Shown piece after piece: positions 12,370-63,206 of a DNA stretch of 64,000 nt. This stretch comes from Minisyncoccota bacterium (GTDB lineage: Bacteria; Patescibacteriota; Minisyncoccia; UBA6257; GWB1-50-10): assembly GCA_041917695.1 (NCBI GenBank), contig JAYRXE010000037.1, forward strand, positions 434,582 through 498,581. The letters are read 5' to 3'. A program made the position numbers and the translations under genes. Every line of letters starts with the position of its first letter. The first letter of the stretch is position 1. Under the pieces are notes generated by a model. That model ran no database searches, had not been told where the DNA came from, and saw only the letters and a program-made list of their open reading frames with translations.

Positions 12370-12392
12370 AAGAGGGCATATGCCCTCTTTAT
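12370..12392 (-). terminator. Rho-independent terminator after the island ORF
   Basis: aaagagggcatatgccctcttt forms a hairpin, with a minus-strand T-run after it. Confidence 0.55.
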
Positions 12393-12787
12393 TAATGATT
12401 AGAATCAAAGAATCCTTCGTTAACAGATGTTACTAAGCAATGAACCTTTCCCTTTCCAACATCCGTACCGGTATAGCTCCCTACCCAAAACCCATCTGCA
12501 AACTTATCAAAAGAATAATAAATTGCTGAACGGTCTTTATAACATTTTCGGAAACTCATTTTTTTCTCTGAAATACGGAAATTGTAAATATCAGCTTCGC
12601 CGAATTTATCTTTAATGTAACCACACACAGTATGTTCCGGCTGAACGGTCACCATTCCTTGAAAAAAATGATACGGTAAACTATCTTCTCTTACTACACC
12701 AATTCCCGGCTTGATACCAATACCATATGAAAGAATCTCATTGAAATAGAGGCCTTGTAAGAGGTAAATATACTTATCTTCGCGCAA
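12392..12787 (-). CDS. Hypothetical protein on an AT-rich mini-island between direct repeats
   Basis: A 131-aa ORF whose composition is much more AT-rich than the surrounding genes. It has its own terminator and no recognisable family. Confidence 0.45.
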   Translation of the reverse strand: MREDKYIYLLQGLYFNEILSYGIGIKPGIGVVREDSLPYHFFQGMVTVQPEHTVCGYIKDKFGEADIYNFRISEKKMSFRKCYKDRSAIYYSFDKFADGFWVGSYTGTDVGKGKVHCLVTSVNEGFFDSNH

Positions 12788-12843: not shown

Positions 12844-12881
12844 AAAATACCACTTGTTAGTGGCATTAGTCAAGATGCTCC
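12844..12881. repeat. Direct repeat copy B, overlapping the 3' end of tRNA-Asn
   Basis: See copy A. The final gctcc is the start of the tRNA-Asn acceptor 3' strand. Confidence 0.6.
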
Positions 12882-12949
12882 CCGGGTAGGATTCGAACCT
12901 ACAACCCGCTCCTTAACAGGGAGACGCTCTACCATTGAGCTACCGGGGA
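12878..12949 (-). tRNA. tRNA-Asn (anticodon GUU)
   Basis: The minus-strand cloverleaf has an acceptor TCCCCGG/CCGGGGA, D-arm GCTC-AATGGTA-GAGC, anticodon loop CTGTTAA and T-arm GTAGG-TTCGAAT-CCTAC. No encoded CCA. Confidence 0.85.
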
Positions 12950-17349: not shown

Positions 17350-17458
17350 TTGTATGCCGGCGTAGCCTACTTTCCCGGAGCCGAAGCCCTAGTATCATCG
17401 GATACGTACGCTTTCACTTCTCTGTTCGGAATGGGAAGAGGTGGTGCACGTACCTATA
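17350..17458 (-). rRNA. rrf: 5S ribosomal RNA
   Basis: The minus strand reads ...CACCACCTCTTCCCATTCCGAACAGAGAAGTGAAAGCGTACG...GATGATACTAGGG...GGGAAAGTAGGCTACGCCGGCAT, which is 5S consensus. Ends are approximate. Confidence 0.85.
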
Positions 17459-17557
17459 AAACACCGGCAAACAAGAATATTCATGTCGTCCATTTTGAAA
17501 TCAGCTTTTTGAGATAGAAATACTACCGCATATTTTGCATATGCGATTAAAAAAGAA

Positions 17558-20650
<3,093 letters not shown>

Positions 20651-34438: not shown

Positions 34439-34509
34439 GCGGGATTCGTTCAGTGGTAGGACGCGACCTTCCCAAGGTTGAGATACGGGTTCGATTCCCG
34501 TATCCCGCA
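34439..34509 (+). tRNA. tRNA-Gly (anticodon CCC)
   Basis: GCGGGAT-TC-GTTC-AGTGGTA-GGAC-G-CGACC-TTCCCAA-GGTTG-AGAT-ACGGG-TTCGATT-CCCGT-ATCCCGC-A. No CCA. Confidence 0.85.
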
Positions 34510-34674
34510 CATAAACATGAACCCACGAAAGATCGTGGGTTCATGCTTCCTACGGGAATCGAACGCGTATGGGGTCGGGAGCGGCGCAACGCTCCCGTGG
34601 AGGAGACGCTTAAGAACCGAGAGGTTCTTAAGGAGCGAAGCGACTTGAGATTTTCCCATATCCCGCACATAAAA
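34510..34674 (+). repeat. tRNA-associated structured repeat element, copy 1 (downstream of tRNA-Gly)
   Basis: Hairpin atgaacccacg-aaagat-cgtgggttcat. Core gggaatcgaacgcgtatggggtcgggagcggcgcaacgctcccgtggaggagacgcttaagaaccgagaggttcttaagg. It ends in a degenerate copy of the tRNA-Gly 3' end (gattttcccatatcccgcacataaaa versus the tRNA's gattcccgtatcccgcacataaa). Homologous copies sit at 43381-43596 and 60046-60214. Confidence 0.7.
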
Positions 34675-34701
34675 CTAAAACCTCCGCATACGCGGAGGTT
34701 T
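34675..34701. terminator. Bidirectional terminator (fusA on the minus strand; the tRNA-Gly unit on the plus strand)
   Basis: cctccgcatacgcggagg forms a hairpin. A T-run follows on the minus strand and tttta on the plus strand. Confidence 0.6.
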
Positions 34702-34712
34702 TAGCTAGATAA

Positions 34713-42380: not shown

Positions 42381-42410
42381 AGCCCACGAATGGGCTTAGA
42401 TGACAACGCA
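42381..42410 (-). terminator. Rho-independent terminator after the AT-rich ORF, immediately upstream of truncated prfB
   Basis: aagcccattcgtgggctt forms a hairpin, followed on the minus strand by ttttttatttttt. Confidence 0.55.
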
Positions 42411-42827
42411 CGCAAAATTGCCGAAAGCGCTTGGCATCAGAAGAATCCACAATGATGAATCCAGTTTATCTGCATGAGTGGCTAGGCAAAAATTTTTGAT
42501 ATCTTCCAGGACTGCATTCTTCCTTTCCTCAAGATTTATTTTTCTCTCGGGATAATCATGCGCGAGAACCAGGATTTCAATCACCTGGGAATGTACGTCC
42601 ATTTTTTTATGTTGCCGAGGCTTTACCTTGATATCTTCGGGCTTGAGGAAGCCTTCCTTTCCTTCTTCCGTTGAGACGGAAAGATGCTTGGAAAGCGTTA
42701 CGGGAAGAAAGCGTGCGAGTTCCTCTGCATCTCCCTTTGCTGATTCCTCGTAGAACATGAATACGTACGGCATTCGAACTCCTTTTTTAAATTTGAAATA
42801 CTGGCTATGTTTTATAGTAAATTCCAC
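42396..42827 (-). CDS. Hypothetical protein (AT-rich island)
   Basis: A 143-aa ORF with low-GC codon usage and its own terminator. No recognisable family, and no similarity to RF2 domain 1. Confidence 0.45.
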   Translation of the reverse strand: MEFTIKHSQYFKFKKGVRMPYVFMFYEESAKGDAEELARFLPVTLSKHLSVSTEEGKEGFLKPEDIKVKPRQHKKMDVHSQVIEILVLAHDYPERKINLEERKNAVLEDIKNFCLATHADKLDSSLWILLMPSAFGNFACVVI

Positions 42828-42862
42828 CAGGAGTCAATTATCCCTAAAAAGAAGAGCCGCAA

Positions 42863-43279
42863 CTATGCGGCTTTCAAAGTATATATCCTTACCTGCTTCA
42901 AATCCCACCAACGACCCTGCCCATTATCAAAAAGAATGCGAGGATCTTTGATCCCTAAATACCTCTCTAATTCCTCAAAGAACGCGGGAGATGAAATGAA
43001 GATGGATGAACTATTCTTATCAGAAAAAAGAGGGCTATCCGCATCTATCTTACCATCCCTGATTACATTAGGGTTCTCAAGCCATAAACCTAATCGATAG
43101 GAAAAAGAGCGCTCTTCTTTCTGGAAAGTAAAATAGAGTTCATCGACCTCGGGAAGAAGGACGGGAATCACTGTCTTAAACATGGACTGACTCATGCCTC
43201 CCCCTCCTCGAATAGAGGATAAAAAAACAGGACAATTATTGATGAGATAAATCACCGCTTCCTTGTGCGAAGTTATCAT
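42863..43279 (-). CDS. Hypothetical protein (AT-rich island)
   Basis: A 138-aa ORF with low-GC codon usage and its own terminator (agccgcaactatgcggct plus a minus-strand T-run at about 42851-42885). Confidence 0.45.
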   Translation of the reverse strand: MITSHKEAVIYLINNCPVFLSSIRGGGGMSQSMFKTVIPVLLPEVDELYFTFQKEERSFSYRLGLWLENPNVIRDGKIDADSPLFSDKNSSSIFISSPAFFEELERYLGIKDPRILFDNGQGRWWDLKQVRIYTLKAA

Positions 43280-43380
43280 TATGCTTCTCCAATAAGTTAT
43301 TAAATTTACTGGATATAAAATAAAATATTTATTAACTTATGTCAAAGTAATTATTCTCTACAATCGAACAATCCGCCGAA

Positions 43381-43596
43381 TGCGCCACTTCGGAATCTCA
43401 TGTCGCTTAAAATACCACTTCAGGAATCTCACAAAATTCCGTATCCACGGAATTTTTTTGAACCCCTCGGTTCCAATTATTCGCTTCGCGAATCCTACGT
43501 CTTGGAAAAACAAGTGTTTTTCCACCGCCTTTTCCCTTCGATTCCGAAATGCTACAGATGTAAAAATACCGTCATAAGACGGTATTTTTACATCTG
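43381..43596 (-). repeat. tRNA-associated structured repeat element, copy 2 (downstream of tRNA-Thr; diverged)
   Basis: A 17-bp perfect hairpin gatgtaaaaataccgtc-ataa-gacggtatttttacatc abuts the tRNA 3' end. It shares blocks with copy 1 (cggaatcgaag, cgaagcga, aaccgaggggttc). It ends in two degenerate copies of the tRNA-Thr 3' end (ccacttcaggaatctca and gccacttcggaatctcatgtcgc). Confidence 0.6.
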
Positions 43597-43669
43597 AGCC
43601 ACTTCCCGGAATCGAACCGGGGACCTTTGCTTTACGAAAGCACTGCTCTACCAGCTGAGCTAAAGTGGC
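43597..43669 (-). tRNA. tRNA-Thr (anticodon CGU)
   Basis: The minus strand reads GCCACTT-TA-GCTC-AGCTGGTA-GAGC-A-GTGCT-TTCGTAA-AGCAA-AGGTC-CCCGG-TTCGATT-CCGGG-AAGTGGC-T. Confidence 0.85.
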
Positions 43670-53910: not shown

Positions 53911-54939
53911 TTATATCGACAAATATTTTTTTCTTTTCTCGTTGTGCTCCTGGAGATTCCGGGAGAAGAAGGTCTCCTGAGTTTCCGGCGAGGAAAGGTA
54001 ATAGAGATAGGGGCTGACTTTGGGGGTGCGGGCGGCGCGGATGGCAGCTTCGCCGGGGTTCGCTATCGGCGTCGGCGTCCAGCCCGTCCGCTTGTAGGTG
54101 TTGTACGGAGAGGCCATTGCGGTATCGCTCCTTAATACGCGGATTTCGGCACATCCGCGGATTTTCCCGTCGCATTTCGCATACGAGAGCGTGGCGTCCA
54201 CCTGGAGGGGCATGGAAAGCGAGATGCGCTTCCAGAGGATACCCGCGACCAGTTGGCGGTTCTCGAACTCCGGGACTTCGCGTTCGAGATACGAGGCGAG
54301 GATCAAGGTCTCATACCAGTCCTTCCGGTCGGCGAGGAGCGGCCAGGCGCGCTTCTCGAAAACGTTCAGCATCTTCCGCACCACCTCTTCGGGAGCCGAG
54401 TTCTTTTCGAAGTAGTAGGTTTCGGGAAAAAGAAACCCTTCGAGCGAATCGGCGTGCGCGAGGAACGGGTACGCGACGCGAAGTCCTTCGAACTCGTATT
54501 CTTCAAGCGCGTTCTCCCGTTCAAGCACGCCGGACTCGACCAAAAGCGATTCGATGTCCTTCAGGGTGGATCCTTCGGGAATGGTGACGAGCACGTCATT
54601 GCGCTTCGTCGACGTGATCTCCGCCATGATCTGTGGCAAGGTCATCGCGCTCGAAAACTCGTACGTTCCCGGCTGGATATTTTGCGCGCGACCCGTAAGG
54701 AGCGCATACATTTTAAAAACAGCAATCGATTTGATGAGCGACTCCTGCGAAAGGCGCGCACCGATATCTTTGAAGCTTTCCCCTCTCTCTATTACGAACT
54801 GCTTCTTCTCCGTCATCCCGTCCACCGGCTGCAGCCCGTAGAAAAAATAGGCCGCGGAAAAAATGAAGAACAGGAGGACCCCCAATCCTATGAGGACGGA
54901 AAAGTTAACTACCTCACGTGTGTCATACTGAGGATTCAA
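53911..54939 (-). CDS. mltG: Endolytic murein transglycosylase MltG (YceG family)
   Basis: An N-terminal TM anchor and a YceG domain with GLPPTPIANPG-like TGWTPTPIANPG. Confidence 0.85.
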   Translation of the reverse strand: MNPQYDTREVVNFSVLIGLGVLLFFIFSAAYFFYGLQPVDGMTEKKQFVIERGESFKDIGARLSQESLIKSIAVFKMYALLTGRAQNIQPGTYEFSSAMTLPQIMAEITSTKRNDVLVTIPEGSTLKDIESLLVESGVLERENALEEYEFEGLRVAYPFLAHADSLEGFLFPETYYFEKNSAPEEVVRKMLNVFEKRAWPLLADRKDWYETLILASYLEREVPEFENRQLVAGILWKRISLSMPLQVDATLSYAKCDGKIRGCAEIRVLRSDTAMASPYNTYKRTGWTPTPIANPGEAAIRAARTPKVSPYLYYLSSPETQETFFSRNLQEHNEKRKKYLSI

Positions 54940-55999
54940 GCTTCGTGGAGTGAATTATACTCACTAGAAGCGCTGTGGTCAAGAGGCTGGACCCGCCGTA
55001 GCTCATAAAGGGAAGGGTGATTCCCGTCACGGGCACGAGTCCAAGGTTTGAGCCCATATTTATCAATAAATGGACGGAAAAGACGATAATTCCGCCGAGG
55101 ACTATGAATTTTGAATAATTGTCCCGCGCTCGGGCGCCGATGGCGGTAAAACGCCAGAGGATAAGGAAATACGCCAGGATAAGAAGCGCTCCGCCGACAA
55201 TCCCCCACTCCTCCACAAATGACGCGAAGATAAAATCAGTTTCGGCTTCGGGAAGGAAGTTCAGATGGGTTTGCGTTCCGCCCTTGAAGCCCTTGCCCAA
55301 AAACCCGGCCGAGCCGATGGCGATTTTTGACTGGATGACGTTGTAGTTGATTCCCAACGGATCGCGCTCGGGGAAAATAAACGCCGTGATGCGGTCCTTC
55401 TGATAATCCTTCAAGACGAATGTCCACACGAGCACCGCGCCAAGAAGCGCTGCCAAAAGTCCCATAAGAAACCGTTTCACGTGAATGCCGCTCATCAAAA
55501 GAAAACCTCCCCAGATGGAAAAGACGACGACCGCCGAACCGAGGTCGGGATGCGCGGCGACCAAGAGCCCCGGCACGGCGACGAGAAAAAACGAGGTGGC
55601 GATGTTCCGCCCCTGCCATGCGGCAACGTGGCGCTTCGAAAAGAATGCCGCGAGCACCAGGATAAGCCCCAGCTTCATGAGCTCCACCGGTTCGAACTGG
55701 AACCCGCCTATCGTAATCCACGCCTTCGTACCGCGCACCGTGCCGGGTTGGATATAGGAAAAAACCAGCAGAATTAGCGCGACCGCATACACCCCCCGCG
55801 AAAACCAGCGTTGGGACGAAAGCCATTTCCAATCGATGACGAAGCCGAGTATGAACACGAGGAGGGCGGCGCCCCACCACATGAGCTGGCGCCAAAAAAA
55901 ATCCATTGAAAGGCTCGCGAGCGTCAGCATGCTCATCGCGGCGATAAAGGCCACACTCGTGAGCATCACCCAGTCGGCATTTTGTCCGCGGATATTCAT
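54923..55999 (-). CDS. SEDS-family peptidoglycan glycosyltransferase (FtsW/RodA)
   Basis: Ten TM helices and SEDS motifs (PDLGSAVV and ETDFIFA). Confidence 0.9.
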   Translation of the reverse strand: MNIRGQNADWVMLTSVAFIAAMSMLTLASLSMDFFWRQLMWWGAALLVFILGFVIDWKWLSSQRWFSRGVYAVALILLVFSYIQPGTVRGTKAWITIGGFQFEPVELMKLGLILVLAAFFSKRHVAAWQGRNIATSFFLVAVPGLLVAAHPDLGSAVVVFSIWGGFLLMSGIHVKRFLMGLLAALLGAVLVWTFVLKDYQKDRITAFIFPERDPLGINYNVIQSKIAIGSAGFLGKGFKGGTQTHLNFLPEAETDFIFASFVEEWGIVGGALLILAYFLILWRFTAIGARARDNYSKFIVLGGIIVFSVHLLINMGSNLGLVPVTGITLPFMSYGGSSLLTTALLVSIIHSTKLESSV

Positions 56000-56002
56000 A
56001 CC

Positions 56003-56776
56003 CTACTCAGCCTCTATCCACACGTTCGATTTTTTCGCGTCAAAGGCGGATTCAAGCGCGGCGTCGCTCGGAAACGCGACGATAAAATCTCGTTCGCCCG
56101 CGGTTTTCATTCCCGAGAGCGTCGTCTCCGCTACGAAGAGTTCCTTGCCGAACGCGTCAAAAAGGGACGCCACCACGCGCACGGATGAAACGGGACCTCC
56201 GCCTTCGTTTTTGAGCGTACCGCTTACGCGAATCCCCCGTTCGGTGAGTTCGGTCGCGATACCCCCCGAAAGCGCGACATCCGGGCGGAGGGCGGAAAAT
56301 GATTTCTCCCACGCCGGTTCGCCGATAACAACTTTTATTTCGCTGACGAGGTTTTGCGCAACGGTAACGCCGCTTTTAATAAGACGCGTCTTCCCGCCCG
56401 GGGCAACCGACGCCGTCCCTTCGAGGGTTTGTATCTTTTGTCCGTCTGCGTTGTAAAACTCGATGGCATAGGGAAAGCGCGCGCTGAATTGGGCGTTCGG
56501 ATTTGTTACTTCCGCAGAGACCTCCGGCGTGATGGCGCCGATGGAAAACACCTTCGGTTCGCGCGACACGCGGAGCGGCTCGAGGGAAAGCACGTCGCAC
56601 GCCTCGCACGTTCCTCCGCAATCGACGTCTTCCTCATCCTGATTCTTCACGCCATCGAAACAGCTTGGGGCAACCTCAAAAAACGGGCGCACAATCGCGT
56701 AAACGATTACCCCCGCAAGAAGCAGAAAAATCACTCCGTACAGCGCCTTTTTTGTTCCGCTATCCATGGCGCGCAA
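56003..56776 (-). CDS. Hypothetical membrane-anchored extracytoplasmic protein
   Basis: An N-terminal TM helix, a CxxCxxC-like cluster (DCGGTCEAC), and a beta-rich body. Its start overlaps the end of tpiA by 17 nt. Confidence 0.5.
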   Translation of the reverse strand: MRAMDSGTKKALYGVIFLLLAGVIVYAIVRPFFEVAPSCFDGVKNQDEEDVDCGGTCEACDVLSLEPLRVSREPKVFSIGAITPEVSAEVTNPNAQFSARFPYAIEFYNADGQKIQTLEGTASVAPGGKTRLIKSGVTVAQNLVSEIKVVIGEPAWEKSFSALRPDVALSGGIATELTERGIRVSGTLKNEGGGPVSSVRVVASLFDAFGKELFVAETTLSGMKTAGERDFIVAFPSDAALESAFDAKKSNVWIEAE

Positions 56777-57527
56777 TTGCTTTTGTGAATGCCGACATTT
56801 TTTTGAGGTCGGACGACGCTCCCCCGACCAGAAGGCCGTCTATCACGGGAAGCGCAAGGTACGCCCCCGCGTTTTTCTCATCAACCGACCCGCCGTATAA
56901 CATCCGGGGAATGGAGAAACCGATTCGCGACATGGCTTCCTTCACATTTAAAATCGTCCACGCGGCAAGCGCCGGACCCATATTCGCGCCGGTACCGATC
57001 GCCCACACCGGCTCATAGGCAACGATAACTTTTTTAAAAAGCTTCGGTGAAACTCCGTGAAGCGACGCGCGCAATTGCTTGGACAAAAAAGAATTCGCCG
57101 CCGCTTCGCCTTTCCTCCGCACGGCGAGGGGCTCGCCGACGCAGAGAATGGCGGTGAGGCCCGCCCCCGCCGCCGCCTCGACTTTCCGGGCAATCTCCAT
57201 ATCCGTTTCCTTAAACACGTTCCGGCGTTCGGAATGCCCCACAATGACGAAACGGGCTCCCGTCTCGGCGAGCATTGCCATGGAAATCCCCCCCGTGAAC
57301 GCCCCGCTCTCCTCCGGGAACCCGTCCTGTGCGCCGAGAACAATCTTTCCCCTTCTTTTCATGAGCGTGCCGAGGAAAAGCGCGGGCGGAGCAACCCACA
57401 TCTCAAACGCGGGGTGTTTTGCAAGCGCGGAGGATGCCGTGCAAAGCTTAAGAGCCTCCCGCTCCGTCCGGGGGTTCATCTTCCAATTGCCGACGATGAG
57501 CTTTTTCATTACGTAAAAAGTATACAA
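56760..57527 (-). CDS. tpiA: Triose-phosphate isomerase
   Basis: GNWKMN near the N-terminus, the catalytic motif VIVGHSERR, and YEPVWAIGTG. Confidence 0.9.
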   Translation of the reverse strand: MYTFYVMKKLIVGNWKMNPRTEREALKLCTASSALAKHPAFEMWVAPPALFLGTLMKRRGKIVLGAQDGFPEESGAFTGGISMAMLAETGARFVIVGHSERRNVFKETDMEIARKVEAAAGAGLTAILCVGEPLAVRRKGEAAANSFLSKQLRASLHGVSPKLFKKVIVAYEPVWAIGTGANMGPALAAWTILNVKEAMSRIGFSIPRMLYGGSVDEKNAGAYLALPVIDGLLVGGASSDLKKMSAFTKAIARHG

Positions 57528-57587: not shown

Positions 57588-58004
57588 TTATTTGGTGAAA
57601 AAATTTTTCAATGCGGTAGCGATCGCTTCGCAGGCTCCGGGTTTCACAATACGGTCGAATGAAATGACCATAACGATCGCTTCATAGCGGGTAGTGAGAA
57701 ACACGCATCCTTCTTCGTTCGCTTTCCGCTCGTGGAACTCCGAATAACTCGGAATGTCCATTGTGGAAAAAACATGCGGAGATACGTCCGAGCAGATAAT
57801 CACCACCTTTCTCGTGATATGAGGCGGGTTCGGTTCTTTCGCAAAATCATGAAAAGAAACCGTACTGTTTTGGAATGGCTCCGGCAAATTTCCGCCCGCA
57901 CAGAATTCTGCGAACTTTTCATTGAAAAGCTCGTGGTAGGCGGTGGCGACGCTTCCCTTCCCCGACTCTTCCACAAGGAGGATGGGGATGCTGTTTTCTG
58001 CCAT
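57588..58004 (-). CDS. Hypothetical protein
   Basis: 138 aa, with its own terminator and no recognisable family. Confidence 0.4.
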   Translation of the reverse strand: MAENSIPILLVEESGKGSVATAYHELFNEKFAEFCAGGNLPEPFQNSTVSFHDFAKEPNPPHITRKVVIICSDVSPHVFSTMDIPSYSEFHERKANEEGCVFLTTRYEAIVMVISFDRIVKPGACEAIATALKNFFTK

Positions 58005-58108
58005 ATAAAACGCTCCTTTCTGTTTGCGCTACGTGTTAAGCTGGCTGAACTCATGGAACTCCTTTCGGTTTTTGCTGTCAAATAAAAAGCCGCCAGCGGC
58101 GGCTTTGG

Positions 58109-58558
58109 TCATGGAGCGGATACGTGCCCCACGCAATACTCCCGATGCATGGCATCCACGCCCTTCAGAAAAAGAGCATACTCTTCCTCGTCCATGCTCG
58201 TATTCGGACACACCACGAACGGAACGACCCGCTCCAGGTGAAGGATGAGGAAGTTGCCCGTGGACGGATGGGGCGCTACCGACCAGTCATTCGTCTCCTG
58301 CCGTTTGAGATATTCAAGATATTCGCGGTTTCCCACCAATATCCGCGCCTTGCTTCTGAAAAAAAACTCGAATTGCTCCGCAAGGGGCTTGTCTTCGTTC
58401 GAATGGATGATGATATCCGGCCGAGGACGGAACCCGTTCCGCAAACGGGGAACAAAAAAATATTCAATGAACTCCTGGCTTTTTCGTATGTCATTCCGGC
58501 TGTCGGAGCCGTTCACCGGAAAATAAAAAAAGGCAAAGATGTTTATTTCGTTTTCCAT
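58109..58558 (-). CDS. Hypothetical protein
   Basis: 149 aa, with its own terminator (aaagccgccagcggcggcttt at about 58083-58105) and no recognisable family. Confidence 0.4.
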   Translation of the reverse strand: MENEINIFAFFYFPVNGSDSRNDIRKSQEFIEYFFVPRLRNGFRPRPDIIIHSNEDKPLAEQFEFFFRSKARILVGNREYLEYLKRQETNDWSVAPHPSTGNFLILHLERVVPFVVCPNTSMDEEEYALFLKGVDAMHREYCVGHVSAP

Positions 58559-58633
58559 GGCGCCTCCGCGCTTAAATTTTTAAAAAAAATGTTTCTGGAA
58601 AAATTTAACCCCCGATAAACGGGGGTGTCAACT

Positions 58634-58984
58634 TTAGGCAGCTGCGAAAAGCTCTGGCTGTGAAACCTTTTCAAAAAAGGCCATGCATTCATGGAAGTTA
58701 TGCTCTTCCTCAGCCTCGGTGACAGGGATTTCCTTATAATCCTTATCCTCTTTGGCATAGGTATTGAGCACTATCCAAGCTCTCTGCCTGCACTGCTTTT
58801 CAATACTTCGGGGAGGTTCTACATATACATGCGAACCGTAATTTTTGTATCCGATGCGTGTCATTTTCTTCCCATCTTCGCTGACAAGAAAAGTGAACTC
58901 CATAGCCTCGTACGTGACTACGACGGTGCGATGGTTATCGCTTACGGACTCAACATGAATCGGATCAGGAATTTTTGGTTCCAT
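58634..58984 (-). CDS. Hypothetical protein
   Basis: 116 aa, with its own terminator (acccccgataaacgggggt at about 58606-58630) and no recognisable family. Confidence 0.4.
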   Translation of the reverse strand: MEPKIPDPIHVESVSDNHRTVVVTYEAMEFTFLVSEDGKKMTRIGYKNYGSHVYVEPPRSIEKQCRQRAWIVLNTYAKEDKDYKEIPVTEAEEEHNFHECMAFFEKVSQPELFAAA

Positions 58985-59146
58985 GATTATCTCCTTTTGA
59001 TTAATTAATATTTACTGTTTTTATTATACCATACGAAGCATATAAAAGTCAATAATTCCAAAGTTTTGTCAAGGTGTCCTACCCAGCTCTGACGCAACGG
59101 AAGAGTATAATGGGTGCAAAGGTCGAGAAAAGCTATTTTTAAAAAA

Positions 59147-59476
59147 ATGAAGAAACTTTTCGTGGTTTTGAGCGTAATGGCAATGATGTTCAGCCTCTCT
59201 TCGGTCGCCCTCGCAGGCGGCGGAAGCTCGCAGGTCTCCTACACGTACTACGATACGCAGGCGGACTATGCGAACGGCGTTGGCACGGCAGTCACCTGCA
59301 ACCCGACGAGCCCCTCCGGCGACTACATCACCTGCTTCATTGACGATGAGGATCGCGCCTGGGGCATTGTGGTCGATACCGACCGCGCCTGGGGCATTGT
59401 CGTCGACGATCGCGCCTGGGGCATTGTCGTTGATACCGATGGCAAATCCTTCGGCATTGTCGTTGATACCGACTAA
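59147..59476 (+). CDS. Secreted small protein with four tandem DRAWGIVVDTD-like repeats
   Basis: Signal peptide MKKLFVVLSVMAMMFSLSSVALA. A Cys-containing segment (TCNPTSPSGDYITCF) precedes DRAWGIVVDTD, RAWGIVVDD, RAWGIVVDTD and GKSFGIVVDTD. A strong terminator follows (aaaaaactccttcgggagtttttt at about 59489-59520). Confidence 0.55.
   Translation: MKKLFVVLSVMAMMFSLSSVALAGGGSSQVSYTYYDTQADYANGVGTAVTCNPTSPSGDYITCFIDDEDRAWGIVVDTDRAWGIVVDDRAWGIVVDTDGKSFGIVVDTD
59351..59473 (+). repeat. Tandem in-frame DNA repeats (about 27-33 bp, four units) within the secreted peptide gene
   Basis: cgcgcctggggcattgt(g/c)gt(c/t)ga... occurs three times, followed by a diverged fourth unit ggcaaatccttcggcattgtcgttgataccgac. 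Confidence 0.7.
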
Positions 59477-59639: not shown

Positions 59640-60008
59640 CTAATGATTCATAACGTACCAACTTTTGTACGCACGTAAATTTTTCTTTGAGAGTTCTTTT
59701 TCGGGGTAAGGACCTACTATTTTTGATGGCATAAGATTCATTTGGGATCTCTGTTGATCTCTAAATAATAGCTCAGGATCTGAATCGGACTGAGCTAATA
59801 CAATTACATTATTTATATTTGTAGCCCCTAAGCACTTATGCTTTTTTGCTTGATTGATTAATGCAGTGATATATTCTCGTATATCTTGTGATATCGTAGA
59901 TTTAAACAACTCCTCAAAAAATTTAAATTTAATTTTTTTCATTTCACTTTTTAAAATTATTAAAAAAATATCTGCAAGCAAAATACTACAAATCATAGCT
60001 TCTGTCAA
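59640..60008 (-). CDS. Hypothetical protein (AT-rich)
   Basis: A 122-aa ORF whose sequence is markedly AT-rich. It lies between the secreted repeat peptide and the tRNA-Glu-associated repeat. Confidence 0.4.
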   Translation of the reverse strand: MTEAMICSILLADIFLIILKSEMKKIKFKFFEELFKSTISQDIREYITALINQAKKHKCLGATNINNVIVLAQSDSDPELLFRDQQRSQMNLMPSKIVGPYPEKELSKKNLRAYKSWYVMNH

Positions 60009-60045
60009 TATTTTGAGAAACGGGACTAGTCGAAAACATTTTCGA

Positions 60046-60214
60046 ATTTAGCCCACGGGAAATCTCACGTCGTCACTCCGCTCCTCCTTAAGAACCCACG
60101 GTTCTTAAAAGATTTCCTCCACGGGAGCGTTGCGCCGCTCCCGACCCCATACGCTTCGATTCCCTGAGCACCCACACTAAAACAACTCCTTGAAAGGAGT
60201 TGTTTTAGTGTAAG
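60046..60214 (-). repeat. tRNA-associated structured repeat element, copy 3 (downstream of tRNA-Glu)
   Basis: The reverse complement of 60086-60164 is gggaatcgaagcgtatggggtcgggagcggcgcaacgctcccgtggaggaaatcttttaagaaccgtgggttcttaagg. This is nearly identical to copy 1 and includes a perfect 38-nt run. The element ends in a degenerate copy of the tRNA-Glu 3' end (agcccacgggaaatctcacgtcg). Adjacent to the tRNA is a 15-bp-stem hairpin aaaacaactcc-ttgaaa-ggagttgtttt. Confidence 0.7.
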
Positions 60215-60286
60215 TAGCCCCACGGGGAATCGAACCCCGATTTTTGCCGTGAGAGGGCAATGTCCTAGCCGTTAGACGATGAGGCC
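60215..60286 (-). tRNA. tRNA-Glu (anticodon CUC)
   Basis: The minus strand reads GGCCTCA-TC-GTCT-AACGGCTA-GGAC-A-TTGCC-CTCTCAC-GGCAA-AAAT-CGGGG-TTCGATT-CCCCG-TGGGGCT-A. The acceptor stem has two G-U pairs. The overall sequence is close to canonical tRNA-Glu. Confidence 0.8.
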
Positions 60287-60298
60287 AACGGAATTCAT

Positions 60299-61600
60299 TT
60301 AATCGTAAAGCCCCGGCTTGCGCAACCACTCAGGCTCCTGGCGAATCAGCAATTTCTCCGCCTGCGTTACGTCCGGAAGCAACGCTTTCACCACGCGCTC
60401 AAGACGCACGCCTTGCGAGCCCTTCACGAGTATCACGTCCCCGCGCTGGACCTTCTGCGCCAATTGCATGGCAAGCTCGTGCACGTTCGAGAATGAAAAT
60501 ATCTTTTTTCTCGGCATGCCTGCCGCAACGGCTCCCTCGCCGATAATCTTCCCGCGAATGCCGATGGTGAAAAGCAGGTCGGCGCTGTCGCGCGCCATGC
60601 GTCCCACGCTTTCGTGCGCTTCGAGCGTGCGGGGCCCGAGTTCCAGCATGTCTCCGAGGACAGCAATCTTTCGCTTCGCCGGCACCGATTTCAAGACCGC
60701 GAGCGCCTCTTCCATCGAGAGCGGAGCGGCGTTATAGGTGTCGTCAATCACGAGCGACTGTTTCACGCCCTTCAAGACGCGCTTCCTGCCTTTGGGCGGG
60801 AGGAACTCCGAGAAAATCTGGCTCGCGTTCAAAAGATTCACATTGAAAAGCAGGCCGATCGAAACCGCCGAGGCAATCGAGTAGGCGGCTGATTTGCCGA
60901 GCGAGCCCACCACGCGGAACGGGACCACGCTCCCGCCGTAGGAGAGTTTGAAACTCACGCCCATCGCGTGCTCTTCCACAAAATACCTGAAATTCAAAAT
61001 GCGCACATGCGCCTCCGGCGAAAAGCCGAAAGTAACCGTATGCGCGCGTGTAAGGGACTTTGCCGAACGCACCCGTTCATCGTCGGCATTCAGAATGGCA
61101 AACCCCGTCGCCGGGAGCGCGGCGATGAGCTTCGCCTTTTCCTTAAACATGGCGTCCGTTCCCGTGAAAAACTCGATGTGCACCGGCGTCTCCCCCATCG
61201 CCGTAAATACGCCGATATGGGGTTTCGCAATCTCAAGGAGGCGCTTCATGTCGCCCGGCCGGTCGATGCCGTACTCAAGGACCACCACCTCCGGGTATTC
61301 CTTGTTCCGCGTGACGATTTGCCGGAAGGCGGTCCACATGACGCGCACCCAGTAGCCGAGACCCGAGGGCGTCCCGAAATCGCCGATGATGGAAAGCGGG
61401 ACGCCCAGTTCGTTGTTGAAATTCTTCGAAGGCGCCCTGACGATGCGCTCGTTCTTCAGGATGCGCGCAATCGCCTCCTTTGCGGAGGTTTTGCCGACAT
61501 TTCCCGTTATGGCGATAATCGCCGGTTCATAGCGCGCGACAATGAGCCGGGCAAGATATTTCAGGACCGACTCGAGAACGCGCACGAGTATTTTTTTCAT
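60299..61600 (-). CDS. murF: UDP-N-acetylmuramoyl-tripeptide--D-alanyl-D-alanine ligase (Mur ligase family)
   Basis: The ATP-binding motif reads ITGNVGKTSAKE, and a Mur ligase central and C-terminal domain are present. Its position directly after ftsI matches the dcw cluster order. Confidence 0.8.
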   Translation of the reverse strand: MKKILVRVLESVLKYLARLIVARYEPAIIAITGNVGKTSAKEAIARILKNERIVRAPSKNFNNELGVPLSIIGDFGTPSGLGYWVRVMWTAFRQIVTRNKEYPEVVVLEYGIDRPGDMKRLLEIAKPHIGVFTAMGETPVHIEFFTGTDAMFKEKAKLIAALPATGFAILNADDERVRSAKSLTRAHTVTFGFSPEAHVRILNFRYFVEEHAMGVSFKLSYGGSVVPFRVVGSLGKSAAYSIASAVSIGLLFNVNLLNASQIFSEFLPPKGRKRVLKGVKQSLVIDDTYNAAPLSMEEALAVLKSVPAKRKIAVLGDMLELGPRTLEAHESVGRMARDSADLLFTIGIRGKIIGEGAVAAGMPRKKIFSFSNVHELAMQLAQKVQRGDVILVKGSQGVRLERVVKALLPDVTQAEKLLIRQEPEWLRKPGLYD

Positions 61601-61604
61601 CGCG

Positions 61605-63206
61605 TTACTGCTCGAGGTTATCTGGTGGAATATGGTAGTAGTTCAGGAGAAACTCCGCAAGTTTCTTGAACGTGGGCACGACCGTGAGGCCGGCCGCTTC
61701 GCCGTGCGCCGGCCGTTCGAGCTTCACCAGCACGGTGAATTTGGGGTCGGTAGCGGGCGCAAAACCAATGAACGTGTGGATCATTTCTTCGGTATACCTC
61801 CCGCTCTTCGGATCGGCGATGAACGCCGTACCCGTCTTTCCGGCAATGTTGTAGTTCGGAATGACCGCGACGCGGTTCTTTACGACGGTCGACGCGAGTA
61901 TCTCGCGCACGGTCTTCGCCGTTTCAGGCTTCACGACCCGGTGCACCACTTCGGGCTTTTCGCTTTTCAAAATATACGGCTTCATGAGCACGCCGTCGTT
62001 CGCGAGCGCGGAAAAGGCGTTGATCATGGCGAGCGGCGTCACCGAAACGCCCTGTCCGTACGCTGCCGTGCCGAAATCGATGGCGCGCACATCTTTGCGC
62101 ACGAGATTCCGCAAATTGCTCACGATCTCGCCGGGAAGCGAGACGCCGGTTTTCTCCGTAAAGCCGAATGCGGAAAGATATTTATAAAAAGTTTGGTGTC
62201 CCGTGAGGCGCTCTGCATAGATGGCGCCCGTATTGATGGAATTCTGGATCATTTCCCGCATCGTTATCTTCCCGTACACGCGATCCTCGAAGTTGTGGAT
62301 GGTCATGCCGTTTAACGTGAAACTCCCCGTGTCTACGAAGGTGGTTTCGGGGGTCAGCGCGCCCGAATCGAGACCGGCGGCGAGCGTAAGCGGCTTGAAA
62401 ACGGAACCCGGCTCGTAAATGAGCTGAACCGCGGGATTCAAGAAGTTCTTCAACTCCGCCTGGTTGTATTCGTTCGGATCGAACGTCGGATTCGATGCCA
62501 TCGCGAGGATTTCGCCGGTCTTCGGGTTTTGGACGATAATCGTCCCGCCTGCGGCGCCGTACTCGGCAACCAGATTTTCCAGGAGCCCTTCCGCCGTGTC
62601 CTCGATGGCGCGGTCAATCGTGAGGTGCACCTCCTCTCCGCGCGCGAGCTCCGCATCGAACATTTTCTCGATGCCGTAGAGCCCTTCCGGCGTTCGGGTT
62701 TCACCCCGCTTGTCGACGAAGCCAACGACATGCGCGCCGAGTTCTTTGAACGGGTAGTACCGCCCCTGGCGGTTCTCGATTGATACGCCTTTCAGTTTCA
62801 AATTTTCTATCTGGACGACTTCCTCATCGGTGGCACGCGGGAGAAGCAGAAGGTATTCGCTCCCCTCTTCTTTTTTCTCCGCGATTTTTTTCGCCAATTC
62901 CCCCGCATCCATATGCACGATGGGCGCGGTAAGCGAGGCCGCGGCACCCGGGTCCTGGACATCGCGGGGCGAAACGAAAATCGAAGGATAGTCCTTTACG
63001 AGCGCGACCGGCACGTCGCTTCCCGAACGGTCAGTGAAAAAGATCTGCCCGCGCTCGGCGATTCCCTGCGTGTCAGCCTGCGAACCGCGCGCTTCTTCCG
63101 TAAAGAGGTCGTTGCCGTGTATCTGTACCGCATAGAGGCGGGCGCAAATTCCCCCATAAAGGGCGATAAAGACGGCAAAGACGAGGAAGAAACGCGTTTT
63201 CATCAC
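61605..63206 (-). CDS. ftsI: Peptidoglycan D,D-transpeptidase (class B penicillin-binding protein, FtsI/PBP2-like)
   Basis: An N-terminal TM anchor and the transpeptidase motifs SVFKP (SxxK), SIN (SxN) and KTGT. Confidence 0.9.
   Translation of the reverse strand: MMKTRFFLVFAVFIALYGGICARLYAVQIHGNDLFTEEARGSQADTQGIAERGQIFFTDRSGSDVPVALVKDYPSIFVSPRDVQDPGAAASLTAPIVHMDAGELAKKIAEKKEEGSEYLLLLPRATDEEVVQIENLKLKGVSIENRQGRYYPFKELGAHVVGFVDKRGETRTPEGLYGIEKMFDAELARGEEVHLTIDRAIEDTAEGLLENLVAEYGAAGGTIIVQNPKTGEILAMASNPTFDPNEYNQAELKNFLNPAVQLIYEPGSVFKPLTLAAGLDSGALTPETTFVDTGSFTLNGMTIHNFEDRVYGKITMREMIQNSINTGAIYAERLTGHQTFYKYLSAFGFTEKTGVSLPGEIVSNLRNLVRKDVRAIDFGTAAYGQGVSVTPLAMINAFSALANDGVLMKPYILKSEKPEVVHRVVKPETAKTVREILASTVVKNRVAVIPNYNIAGKTGTAFIADPKSGRYTEEMIHTFIGFAPATDPKFTVLVKLERPAHGEAAGLTVVPTFKKLAEFLLNYYHIPPDNLEQ

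Follow-up and report, generated by a model that had tools for sequence, protein, structure and literature searches.

A structured repeat element directly behind tRNA-Glu, one of three copies in a Parcubacteria-group contig, resembles the RtT repeats of Escherichia coli in its architecture

The stretch analysed here (the window) is a 64-kb piece of contig JAYRXE010000037.1 from a Parcubacteria-group member of the Patescibacteria, whose closest MurF relative is found in a Candidatus Jorgensenbacteria metagenome-assembled genome (57% identity). A repeat element at ~60042-60213, on the minus strand and immediately 3' of tRNA-Glu(CTC), is on balance best explained as one of three window copies of an RtT-like tRNA-trailer module that acts as RNA, and we hold this explanation with moderate confidence. 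The modules have a defined anatomy, a strict position and orientation beside a tRNA gene, arms matched to that tRNA, and fixed borders in the T-loop. Their structure is conserved and covarying, they turn over (presence or absence, arrays, isotype switching), and their architecture is equivalent to that of RtT. An initial annotation, made from the letters alone, had described a third copy of a tRNA-associated element carrying a pseudo-copy of the tRNA-Glu 3' end; both parts of that description hold, and its limits for the element (60046-60214) need a slight correction only.

On the minus strand, murF is followed by tRNA-Glu(CTC) and then by the repeat element. The tRNA gene that anchors this copy (60214-60286, minus strand; found by ARAGORN, 59.4 bits with the Rfam tRNA model) is intact and does not encode CCA. 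Behind it come, in order, a palindromic linker, an inverted arm (A'), a hairpin-rich interior of ~90 nt and a direct repeat of the tRNA 3' end (DR), all read on the minus strand. The linker, identified by a blastn inverted self match and by reading of the sequence, begins 2 nt past the tRNA and forms a perfect 16-bp palindrome, ACACTAAAACAACTCC / GGAGTTGTTTTAGTGT, at 60174-60211. It is unique to the Glu copy, with no alignable counterpart in the Gly or Thr linkers, and the terminator scan did not call it as a terminator. The arm A' (TCAGGGAATCGAA, 60155-60167) is the reverse complement of tRNA-Glu positions ~54-66, i.e., of the T-loop and the T-stem 3' strand, with two mismatches against the expected ACGGGGAATCGAA. 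The interior (60065-60154), delimited from the sequence and from folds, is 85% identical to that of the Gly copy and contains two strong hairpins, GGGAGCG-GCGCAA-CGCTCCC (60123-60142) and TTAAGAACC-GTG-GGTTCTTAA (60088-60108), the latter including a GGGTTC that resembles the 5' half of a T-arm. There is also a GGGGTC motif, and a last 27-nt segment, ending in GTGA, precedes the DR. The DR (GATTTCCCGTGGGCTA, 60049-60064) repeats the tRNA-Glu 3' end in direct orientation, beginning at position 57 in the T-loop and reaching the discriminator. It is decayed and differs from the tRNA (GATTCCCCGTGGGGCTA) by one substitution and one deletion.

The second copy lies at 34511-34673 on the plus strand, behind tRNA-Gly(CCC) (34439-34510), and has no cargo. 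By blastn, 60057-60164 matches 34656-34554 (the reverse complement, which is the sense strand of tRNA-Gly) with 85% identity over 110 nt and E = 1.6e-27. This copy has a linker palindrome at 34516-34545, an A' (TACGGGAATCGAAC, 34551-34564) that is perfect with respect to tRNA-Gly, and a DR, GATTTTCCCATATCCCGCA, which together with CATAAA occupies 34649-34673; the DR reads TTCCCATATCCCGCACATAAA and the tRNA itself TTCCCGTATCCCGCACATAAA. A true terminator comes after the copy, at 34676-34703. The Gly copy was found with identical spacing in all four strains examined. The third copy, at 43381-43595 on the minus strand, follows tRNA-Thr(CGT) (43596-43669) and has a diverged interior. Its linker palindrome is at 43557-43594, its A' (CGGAATCGAA) at 43537-43546 and its DR1 at 43415-43430; an older unit has left a remnant with DR2 (43381-43397) at its end, so that this locus has two DRs. 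The linkers between tRNA and A' in the window are perfect palindromes of 12-17 bp and are mutually unrelated. In the window units, the T-arm 5' half (GGGTTC) was read 21-31 nt upstream of the DR, and the units therefore resemble a pseudo T-arm interrupted by an insertion at 56/57. The tRNA-Asn, tRNA-Lys and tRNA-Pro genes of the window have no unit, and Rfam reveals no family beyond tRNA in the Glu, Gly and Thr copies, even at E <= 10.

The same layout is present in related genomes. A scripted scan of every tRNA in the window and in 82 relative loci took in 113 tRNAs with at least 150 nt of downstream sequence, A' being defined as a 13-mer with at most two mismatches to the tRNA's own sequence within 400 nt. 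An A' was found downstream of 17 of the 113 tRNAs and a DR downstream of 13, while neither was found upstream of any (0/113 each). In 80 Parcubacteria relatives the unit layout stands at ~18% of the tRNAs, always downstream and on the tRNA strand, with a length of 65-300 nt. Copies of tRNA 3' ends beyond ~500 nt are absent among the relatives, so that genes are never enclosed, and none of ~90 units examined has an open reading frame (ORF) between the tRNA and its 3'-end copy. At metagenome loci, the far 3'-end matches turned out to be other tRNAs, chance matches or another unit; at locus L172 they are other tRNA-Ser genes and do not form a five-unit array. The borders of the arms are constant: A' reaches to tRNA position 54 (sometimes 53), and the DR starts at 57 (56-58) and runs to the discriminator plus 0-55 nt into the trailer.

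Within one genome, interiors are homologous across different tRNAs, and the arms track each tRNA. At L010, the tRNA-Gly arm AGGGGAATCGAAC and the tRNA-Ser arm GTGGGATTTGAAC are set on interiors that are ~85% alike by eye. Behind the tRNA-Ser of L010 stand three units in tandem, whose interiors are unrelated and whose three DRs are all perfect; successive units are separated by short hairpin linkers only (~45-50 nt). Orthologous tRNA-Glu genes of the relatives carry a unit in some cases and lack it in others. The exact core common to the Gly and Glu copies gave no match in genome contigs, viral contigs or metagenome contigs; the interior is thus lineage-specific, and only an architecture-based pattern succeeded. 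As a side observation, many contigs of the species and its relatives stop at or just past tRNA-Glu (L001 and L006, also L004, L007, L009, L011 and L046). The last letter of contig L001 is T-loop C56, and that of L006 is the complement of position 57, within the inverted arm; these two ends may reflect chance or population variation at the 56/57 junction. Contig L207 starts at window position 60144, inside a 40-nt block common to the Gly and Glu copies, and its assembly break is explained by the repetition of this block.

The pattern used for metagenomes demanded a T-arm, 25-55 nt and an inverted T-arm, without demanding a DR, and it matched at least 120 stretches. The counts that follow hold among the matches listed. 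At 104 loci, the first half of the pattern coincides with a tRNA on the same strand, and there is no convergent tRNA; 69 of these have a DR as well, and more than 20 tRNA species are represented. There are 54 full units of 65-299 nt. Interior families cross isotypes (Ser/Pro/Leu/Thr, Leu/Glu, Leu/His, Gly/Trp), with unrelated linkers. Where units form arrays, divergence is greater in the distal DR: this holds for 9 arrays if up to 3 edits are allowed and for 17 if up to 4 are. A more diverged proximal DR was seen in no array, and 8 arrays are tied. Tandem arrays of identical units also occur in metagenome contigs. Minimal tandem units of only 62 nt were found behind tRNA-Lys(TTT) in human-gut and other contigs (L092, L093, L103, L185, L189). 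They consist of a linker, a full inverted T-arm (GGGGATTCGAACCCC) and a variant copy of the T-arm and acceptor, and they lack an interior; in L185, minimal units are separated by an ORF of 229 aa. Judged by eye from a neighbouring ORF that resembles a MATE transporter, the human-gut contigs with minimal units appear to come from non-Patescibacteria. A motif composed of GGGGTCG, a hairpin and (T)GACC recurs in units of distant lineages, mostly right before the DR (window 60143-60148 and 34572-34577; L021, L072, L076, L082, L058).

Single-sequence folds of the relatives' units reveal a recurring Y shape, in which a helix formed by A' and the DR (P1) closes two hairpin domains. For an interior family of seven members, the consensus fold is a three-way junction with compensatory changes in 18 of 35 pairs. 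Paired cells amount to 91.6% in this family vs. 74.9% in shuffles, and its covariation score is 0.441 vs. 0.156 for shuffles, none of 500 of which reaches 0.441; slid controls stay at or below 0.137. Taken together with the conservation of the CAGGAUG loops, this covariation suggests purifying selection on the structure. Interior family 1 (L086, L105, L125, L132, L170, L172) has two separate hairpins with the same conserved loop, CA(U/G)GGAUG / CAGGAUG, on fully covarying stems. To judge from the sequences, the paired CAGGAUG loops look like a putative paired binding site, either for a protein or for a loop-loop contact. P1 stops at the border between T-stem and acceptor in 45 of the 54 full units among the matches listed, which leaves the acceptor 3' copy unpaired. 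The A':DR helix is present in the folds of units from relatives and metagenomes and in that of the Thr copy; in the predicted minimum free energy folds of the Gly and Glu copies the DR has other partners, and their A':DR pairing was read from the sequence. With regard to the strand, the raw folding energy is better for the sense strand in 17 of 17 units; the sense strand being G-rich, this preference, which the metagenome units also have, is in part an effect of composition. Against dinucleotide shuffles, 50 of 68 units have the better z-score on the sense strand (mean -3.83, vs. -2.92 on the antisense strand).

The closest parallel is found in E. coli, in the tyrT repeats and the rtT RNA, which after decades of study still have no accepted function or origin. 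In Rfam, RtT is a family that follows enterobacterial tRNA-Tyr genes. The E. coli tyrT/tyrV repeats (178 bp, 3.14 copies) are Rfam RtT (RF00391), with 134-137 bits. Each unit comprises a linker; GGGGAAGGAU, an inverted copy of the T-stem 3' strand and of the first part of the acceptor, with GAGAA right behind it; hairpins of the interior, among them the T-arm 5'-half-like AAGGUUCGA; and the DR AAUCCUUCCCCCACCACCA. In the Rfam consensus, GGGGAAGGAU is paired with AUCCUUCCCC, and CACCACCA is unpaired. The annotated 3' end of rttR is the CCA of the E. coli DR. Like RtT, the units described here stand immediately 3' of a tRNA gene and on its strand, also as tandem repeats, and each closes with a copy of the tRNA 3' end whose first position is in the T-loop (57 in the present units, 58 in E. 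coli). In both, a 5' arm that is complementary to the 3' strand of the T-stem closes a multi-hairpin interior, the acceptor 3' strand is single-stranded, G-A-A follows the arm, and a sequence resembling the T-arm 5' half lies within the interior. However, no similarity is detectable at the level of sequence or covariance model. The copies described here have no CCA, since their tRNA genes do not encode it, and they have a palindromic linker ahead of the unit. They also follow many isotypes in Patescibacteria, compared with tRNA-Tyr in enterobacteria, and stand singly in the window, in contrast to the three-copy array of E. coli. A preprint of 2024 still calls the mode of action of rttR unknown. 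Full-text literature searches revealed no description of such a general class.

According to the RNA explanation that we favour, a module is placed 15-50 nt behind the tRNA gene on the same strand and consists of A', the hairpin-rich interior and the DR (from 57 to the discriminator). A' would pair with the T part of the DR, and this helix would close a two- or three-branched structure. The acceptor 3' strand would be left as a single-stranded tRNA-like tail, P1 and the tail together presenting a tRNA-like 3' end. The module would be co-transcribed with the tRNA and probably released by the enzymes of tRNA 3'-end processing, as reported for the rtT RNA of E. coli. It would thereby be a non-coding RNA from the 3' trailer of a tRNA transcript, like 3'ETS-leuZ, a small RNA (sRNA) sponge in E. 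coli; unlike the modules, the latter has neither a copy of the tRNA end nor an inverted arm, and we know of no sRNA partners of the modules. At the DNA level, units might be added beside the tRNA, duplicated in tandem and lost through the direct repeat, and might be exchanged between tRNA genes through the common T-arm sequence. The arms could stay matched to the tRNA through selection for P1 or through template-switch (quasi-palindrome) correction against the tRNA.

Several points weigh against this explanation. The RF00391 covariance model, whose threshold is 45 bits, has no match at E <= 10 in the Glu, Gly and Thr regions of the window, none at E <= 1 in the L010 region and none at the gathering score in 20 other loci; as it scores no unit, the units are classed as RtT-like by architecture and not as members of the family. 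To our knowledge, the E. coli RNA itself has no established function. When the three window copies are considered alone, their shuffle z-scores are stronger on the antisense strand, not on the sense strand, so that the active strand can be assigned at the level of the family only. A folded single-stranded DNA as the active form would also yield covariation and a strand bias. The Glu and Thr linkers resemble terminators, which would limit co-transcription. Two features are left unexplained by the RNA model alone: the GAA of A', which is the complement of positions 54-56 and has no counterpart in the DR, and the re-specification of the arms after a move (the arms of the Gly and the first Ser unit of L010 differ at 5 of 13 positions, and each fits its own tRNA).

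A broader proposal, which we put forward tentatively, is that RtT-like units are pan-bacterial self-propagating modules templated on the adjoining tRNA. They would copy its 3' end in both orientations, enter at 56/57 and build polar arrays in the manner of integrons or CRISPR, by means of an enzyme not yet described, and E. coli rtT would be their best-known member. Recombination of a folded strand, or priming on the tRNA end, would be a candidate mechanism here. As an explanation in its own right, a small non-autonomous mobile DNA module that acts as a folded single strand, like attC or the attP(+) hairpin of CTX phage, seems rather unlikely. In such a module, the A':DR stem would mimic a double-stranded T-arm, and a recombinase supplied in trans would cross it with the T-loop at 56/57, so that new units would enter beside the tRNA and push older ones outward. 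This agrees with the fixed T-loop borders and the arms specific to the adjoining tRNA, with the polar arrays, in which older-looking units are distal and some interiors are unrelated, and with the two independent contigs (L001 and L006) that end exactly at 56/57. The passage of interior families between isotypes, the presence or absence of units at orthologous tRNA-Glu genes and the direct repeats that sometimes extend 6-55 nt into the trailer fit as well. So does a structure that is kept while the sequence is free, as in attC. The attC and attP(+) sites are also similar in having imperfect inverted repeats around a variable structured centre, a bias towards folding of one strand and arrays that grow at a fixed chromosomal site. 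However, the GTTRRRY core of attC is absent here (GTTCGAT of the arm does not fit), the arms copy the local tRNA T-arm, and there are no ORF cassettes between units. No integrase, transposase or reverse transcriptase stands beside any unit, and no ORF-bearing version was seen. Neither a recombinase candidate nor an integron integrase or attI was found, the scan having covered selected ORFs of the window. Interiors that are homologous have linkers unrelated to each other, as seen for the Gly and Glu copies of the window, for the Gly and Ser units of L010 and within family 1, which argues against a simple insertion by an element that supplies a new tRNA 3' end together with the linker. Furthermore, the break of L207 is accounted for by the 40-nt Gly/Glu block, and the unit core was not found in viral contigs.

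Less probable still is an origin by replication template switching at the palindromes behind tRNA genes (terminator and T-arm hairpins), which would generate nested quasi-palindromes that have no function and no dedicated mobility. The window linkers do abut the tRNA end as long perfect palindromes of 12-17 bp, in L062, L065, L125 and L132 the palindrome extends into a full inverted copy of the acceptor, and the minimal 62-nt units of L092, L185 and L189 are just an inverted T-arm followed by a direct one. The borders are also at the T-loop, where a hairpin-mediated switch would take place. Such a process does not account for interiors that are homologous between tRNA loci and distant contigs, for covarying stems with sequence-conserved CAGGAUG loops, for units at ~18% of tRNAs across a whole bacterial class, or for the GGGGTCG...TGACC motif that recurs across lineages. 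Integration into a tRNA gene classically leaves a direct repeat of the tRNA 3' segment, with its start in the T-loop. The last rival, close to the initial annotation, therefore takes the units for attL/attR scars of integrase-mediated islands or prophages in the tRNA 3' end, now almost wholly deleted, with the AT-rich ORFs as leftover cargo. This is largely refuted, and we regard it as very improbable. In its favour are the repeat itself, the AT-rich ORFans adjoining the Glu and Thr units, and the strain-variable Thr cargo, which begins inside DR2. The att sites of tRNA-targeting elements (genomic islands, tycheposons, cis-mobilizable elements) resemble the units in their tRNA 3'-segment repeat with its inner border in the T-loop, in the intact tRNA on the proximal side and in the accessory genes that vary near tRNAs. 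However, the repeat pair of the units encloses 65-300 nt and in 0 of ~90 cases a gene, the cargo lies outside the pair and not between the repeats, and no integrase is present. Repeats 45-500 nt apart with no ORF between them do not delimit a genomic island. An att scar predicts neither the inverted arm nor the conserved structured interior nor its covariation, and the Gly unit has no cargo while the tRNA-Asn cargo has no unit.

Other candidates were considered and rejected. In a miniature inverted-repeat transposable element the inverted repeats would not differ from copy to copy as they do here, where they equal the adjoining tRNA, the duplication measures from 17 to ~75 nt and every copy is linked to a tRNA. 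Small ribozymes, retron non-coding RNA, signal recognition particle RNA and tmRNA find no support in Rfam. Decayed tandem or convergent tRNA pseudogenes do not fit an inverted T-loop and the absence of the D arm and anticodon arm. Ends of the IS200/IS605, IS91 or IS110 type were discarded as well, there being no transposase, and the GTTC junction being the T-loop.

The units form a widespread RtT-like class that Rfam does not capture and that searches of the accessible literature did not reveal, and they are more than a local hotspot. If they and RtT are the same kind of thing, the rtT oddity of E. coli is one case of a widespread and fast-evolving class. This class follows about one in five Parcubacteria tRNA genes and, among the matches listed, more than 20 tRNA species in metagenomes, human-gut ones included. 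The covarying helices, fixed borders, polar arrays and isotype switching make both function and spread testable, also by E. coli genetics. In practice, automatic annotation could take the units for attachment sites of genomic islands, and they are one cause of the contig breaks seen at tRNA genes when uncultured bacteria are assembled.

The AT-rich genes past the DR are cargo unrelated to the module, i.e., independent promoter-ORF-terminator cassettes in a strain-variable slot, and they reflect ordinary turnover of accessory genes at a tRNA-proximal position. Outside the Glu module lies h122, an AT-rich ORFan of 122 aa (59640-60008, minus strand; GC 0.30, GC at third codon positions (GC3) 0.25, codon adaptation index-like (CAI-like) value 0.37), which is served by a promoter-like site, TTGACA-17-TATTTT, at 59980-60008, right past the DR. 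It is followed by pep109 (59147-59476), a gene whose 109-aa product has an N-terminus resembling a signal peptide and about four RAWGIVVDTD repeats in tandem, and which is native-like in composition (GC 0.58, GC3 0.75, CAI-like 0.76). The initial annotation listed these ORFs as they are found, except that the repeat-peptide gene is on the plus strand, opposite to the other genes, and not on the minus strand. Three small ORFans of 138, 149 and 116 aa (57588-58984, minus strand) each end in a terminator-like hairpin, which bears out their description as terminator-separated genes, and promoter-like sites lie ahead of the 116- and 149-aa ORFs. Core genes have CAI-like values of 0.62-0.79. In comparison, h116 (58634-58984, minus strand; GC 0.45, GC3 0.48, CAI-like 0.56) is intermediate, and h138 and h149 (GC 0.48 and 0.51; GC3 0.57 and 0.63; CAI-like 0.65 for both) are at the low end of the core range. 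The compositional break that had been suspected is therefore real for h122, and the slot is partly foreign in composition.

For the five small ORFs that separate tRNA-Glu from tpiA (56760-57509), tblastn gave no match in the murF loci of 80 relatives, and there is none in Pfam or PHROGs. In four relatives tpiA follows 0.6-2.5 kb past tRNA-Glu, compared with 2.7 kb in the window. Upstream, murF (60299-61600) and ftsI (61605-63206) are on the minus strand. FtsW/RodA (54923-55999) was correctly placed next to MltG/YceG (53911-54939), but the proposal that the dcw cluster was cut after murF by insertion or deletion at the tRNA did not stand. The order FtsL-FtsI-MurF-tRNA-Glu(CTC) is conserved in most of the 80 Parcubacteria relatives, so that the break in the cluster is ancestral.

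Repeated insertion and deletion at this tRNA, also proposed by the annotation, is real for the cargo and separate from the module. The slot between tRNA-Glu and tpiA differs among strains that are 99% identical elsewhere. Contig L212 diverges from the window upstream of 59117, just past the -10 box of pep109 (TATAAT, ~59108-59113), and continues into a different ORF start (MGGDSVS...), which suggests that the same promoter serves alternative genes; contigs L210 and L213 stop at 59028. At the tRNA-Thr locus, the unit is conserved and the cargo varies between strains: a 1.09-kb cassette starts inside DR2 (GAGATTCCGAAG|) in three JGI contigs (L219/L222/L223), and a 461-nt cassette of the window (42396-42827) is missing from the same three. 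The repeat element itself is not a footprint of this traffic, the Gly copy, present in all four strains examined, having no cargo and the tRNA-Asn cargo having no element.

Some further observations concern these slots and the rest of the window. Between the tRNA-Thr unit and prfB (window 42396-43380 vs. L219/L222/L223), close strains carry different small AT-rich ORFan cassettes, and one cassette is inserted directly after the terminator hairpin of the previous one. Directly downstream of tRNA-Asn (12877-12949) lies a strongly AT-rich ORFan at 12392-12787 on the minus strand (GC 0.36, GC3 0.30); this locus has neither an RtT-like unit nor a repeated tRNA end. The 23S and 5S rRNA genes lie at 17354-20643 on the minus strand, with no 16S gene within the 64-kb window, and the 23S match of 3091 nt to a model of 2925 positions suggests one or more insertions.

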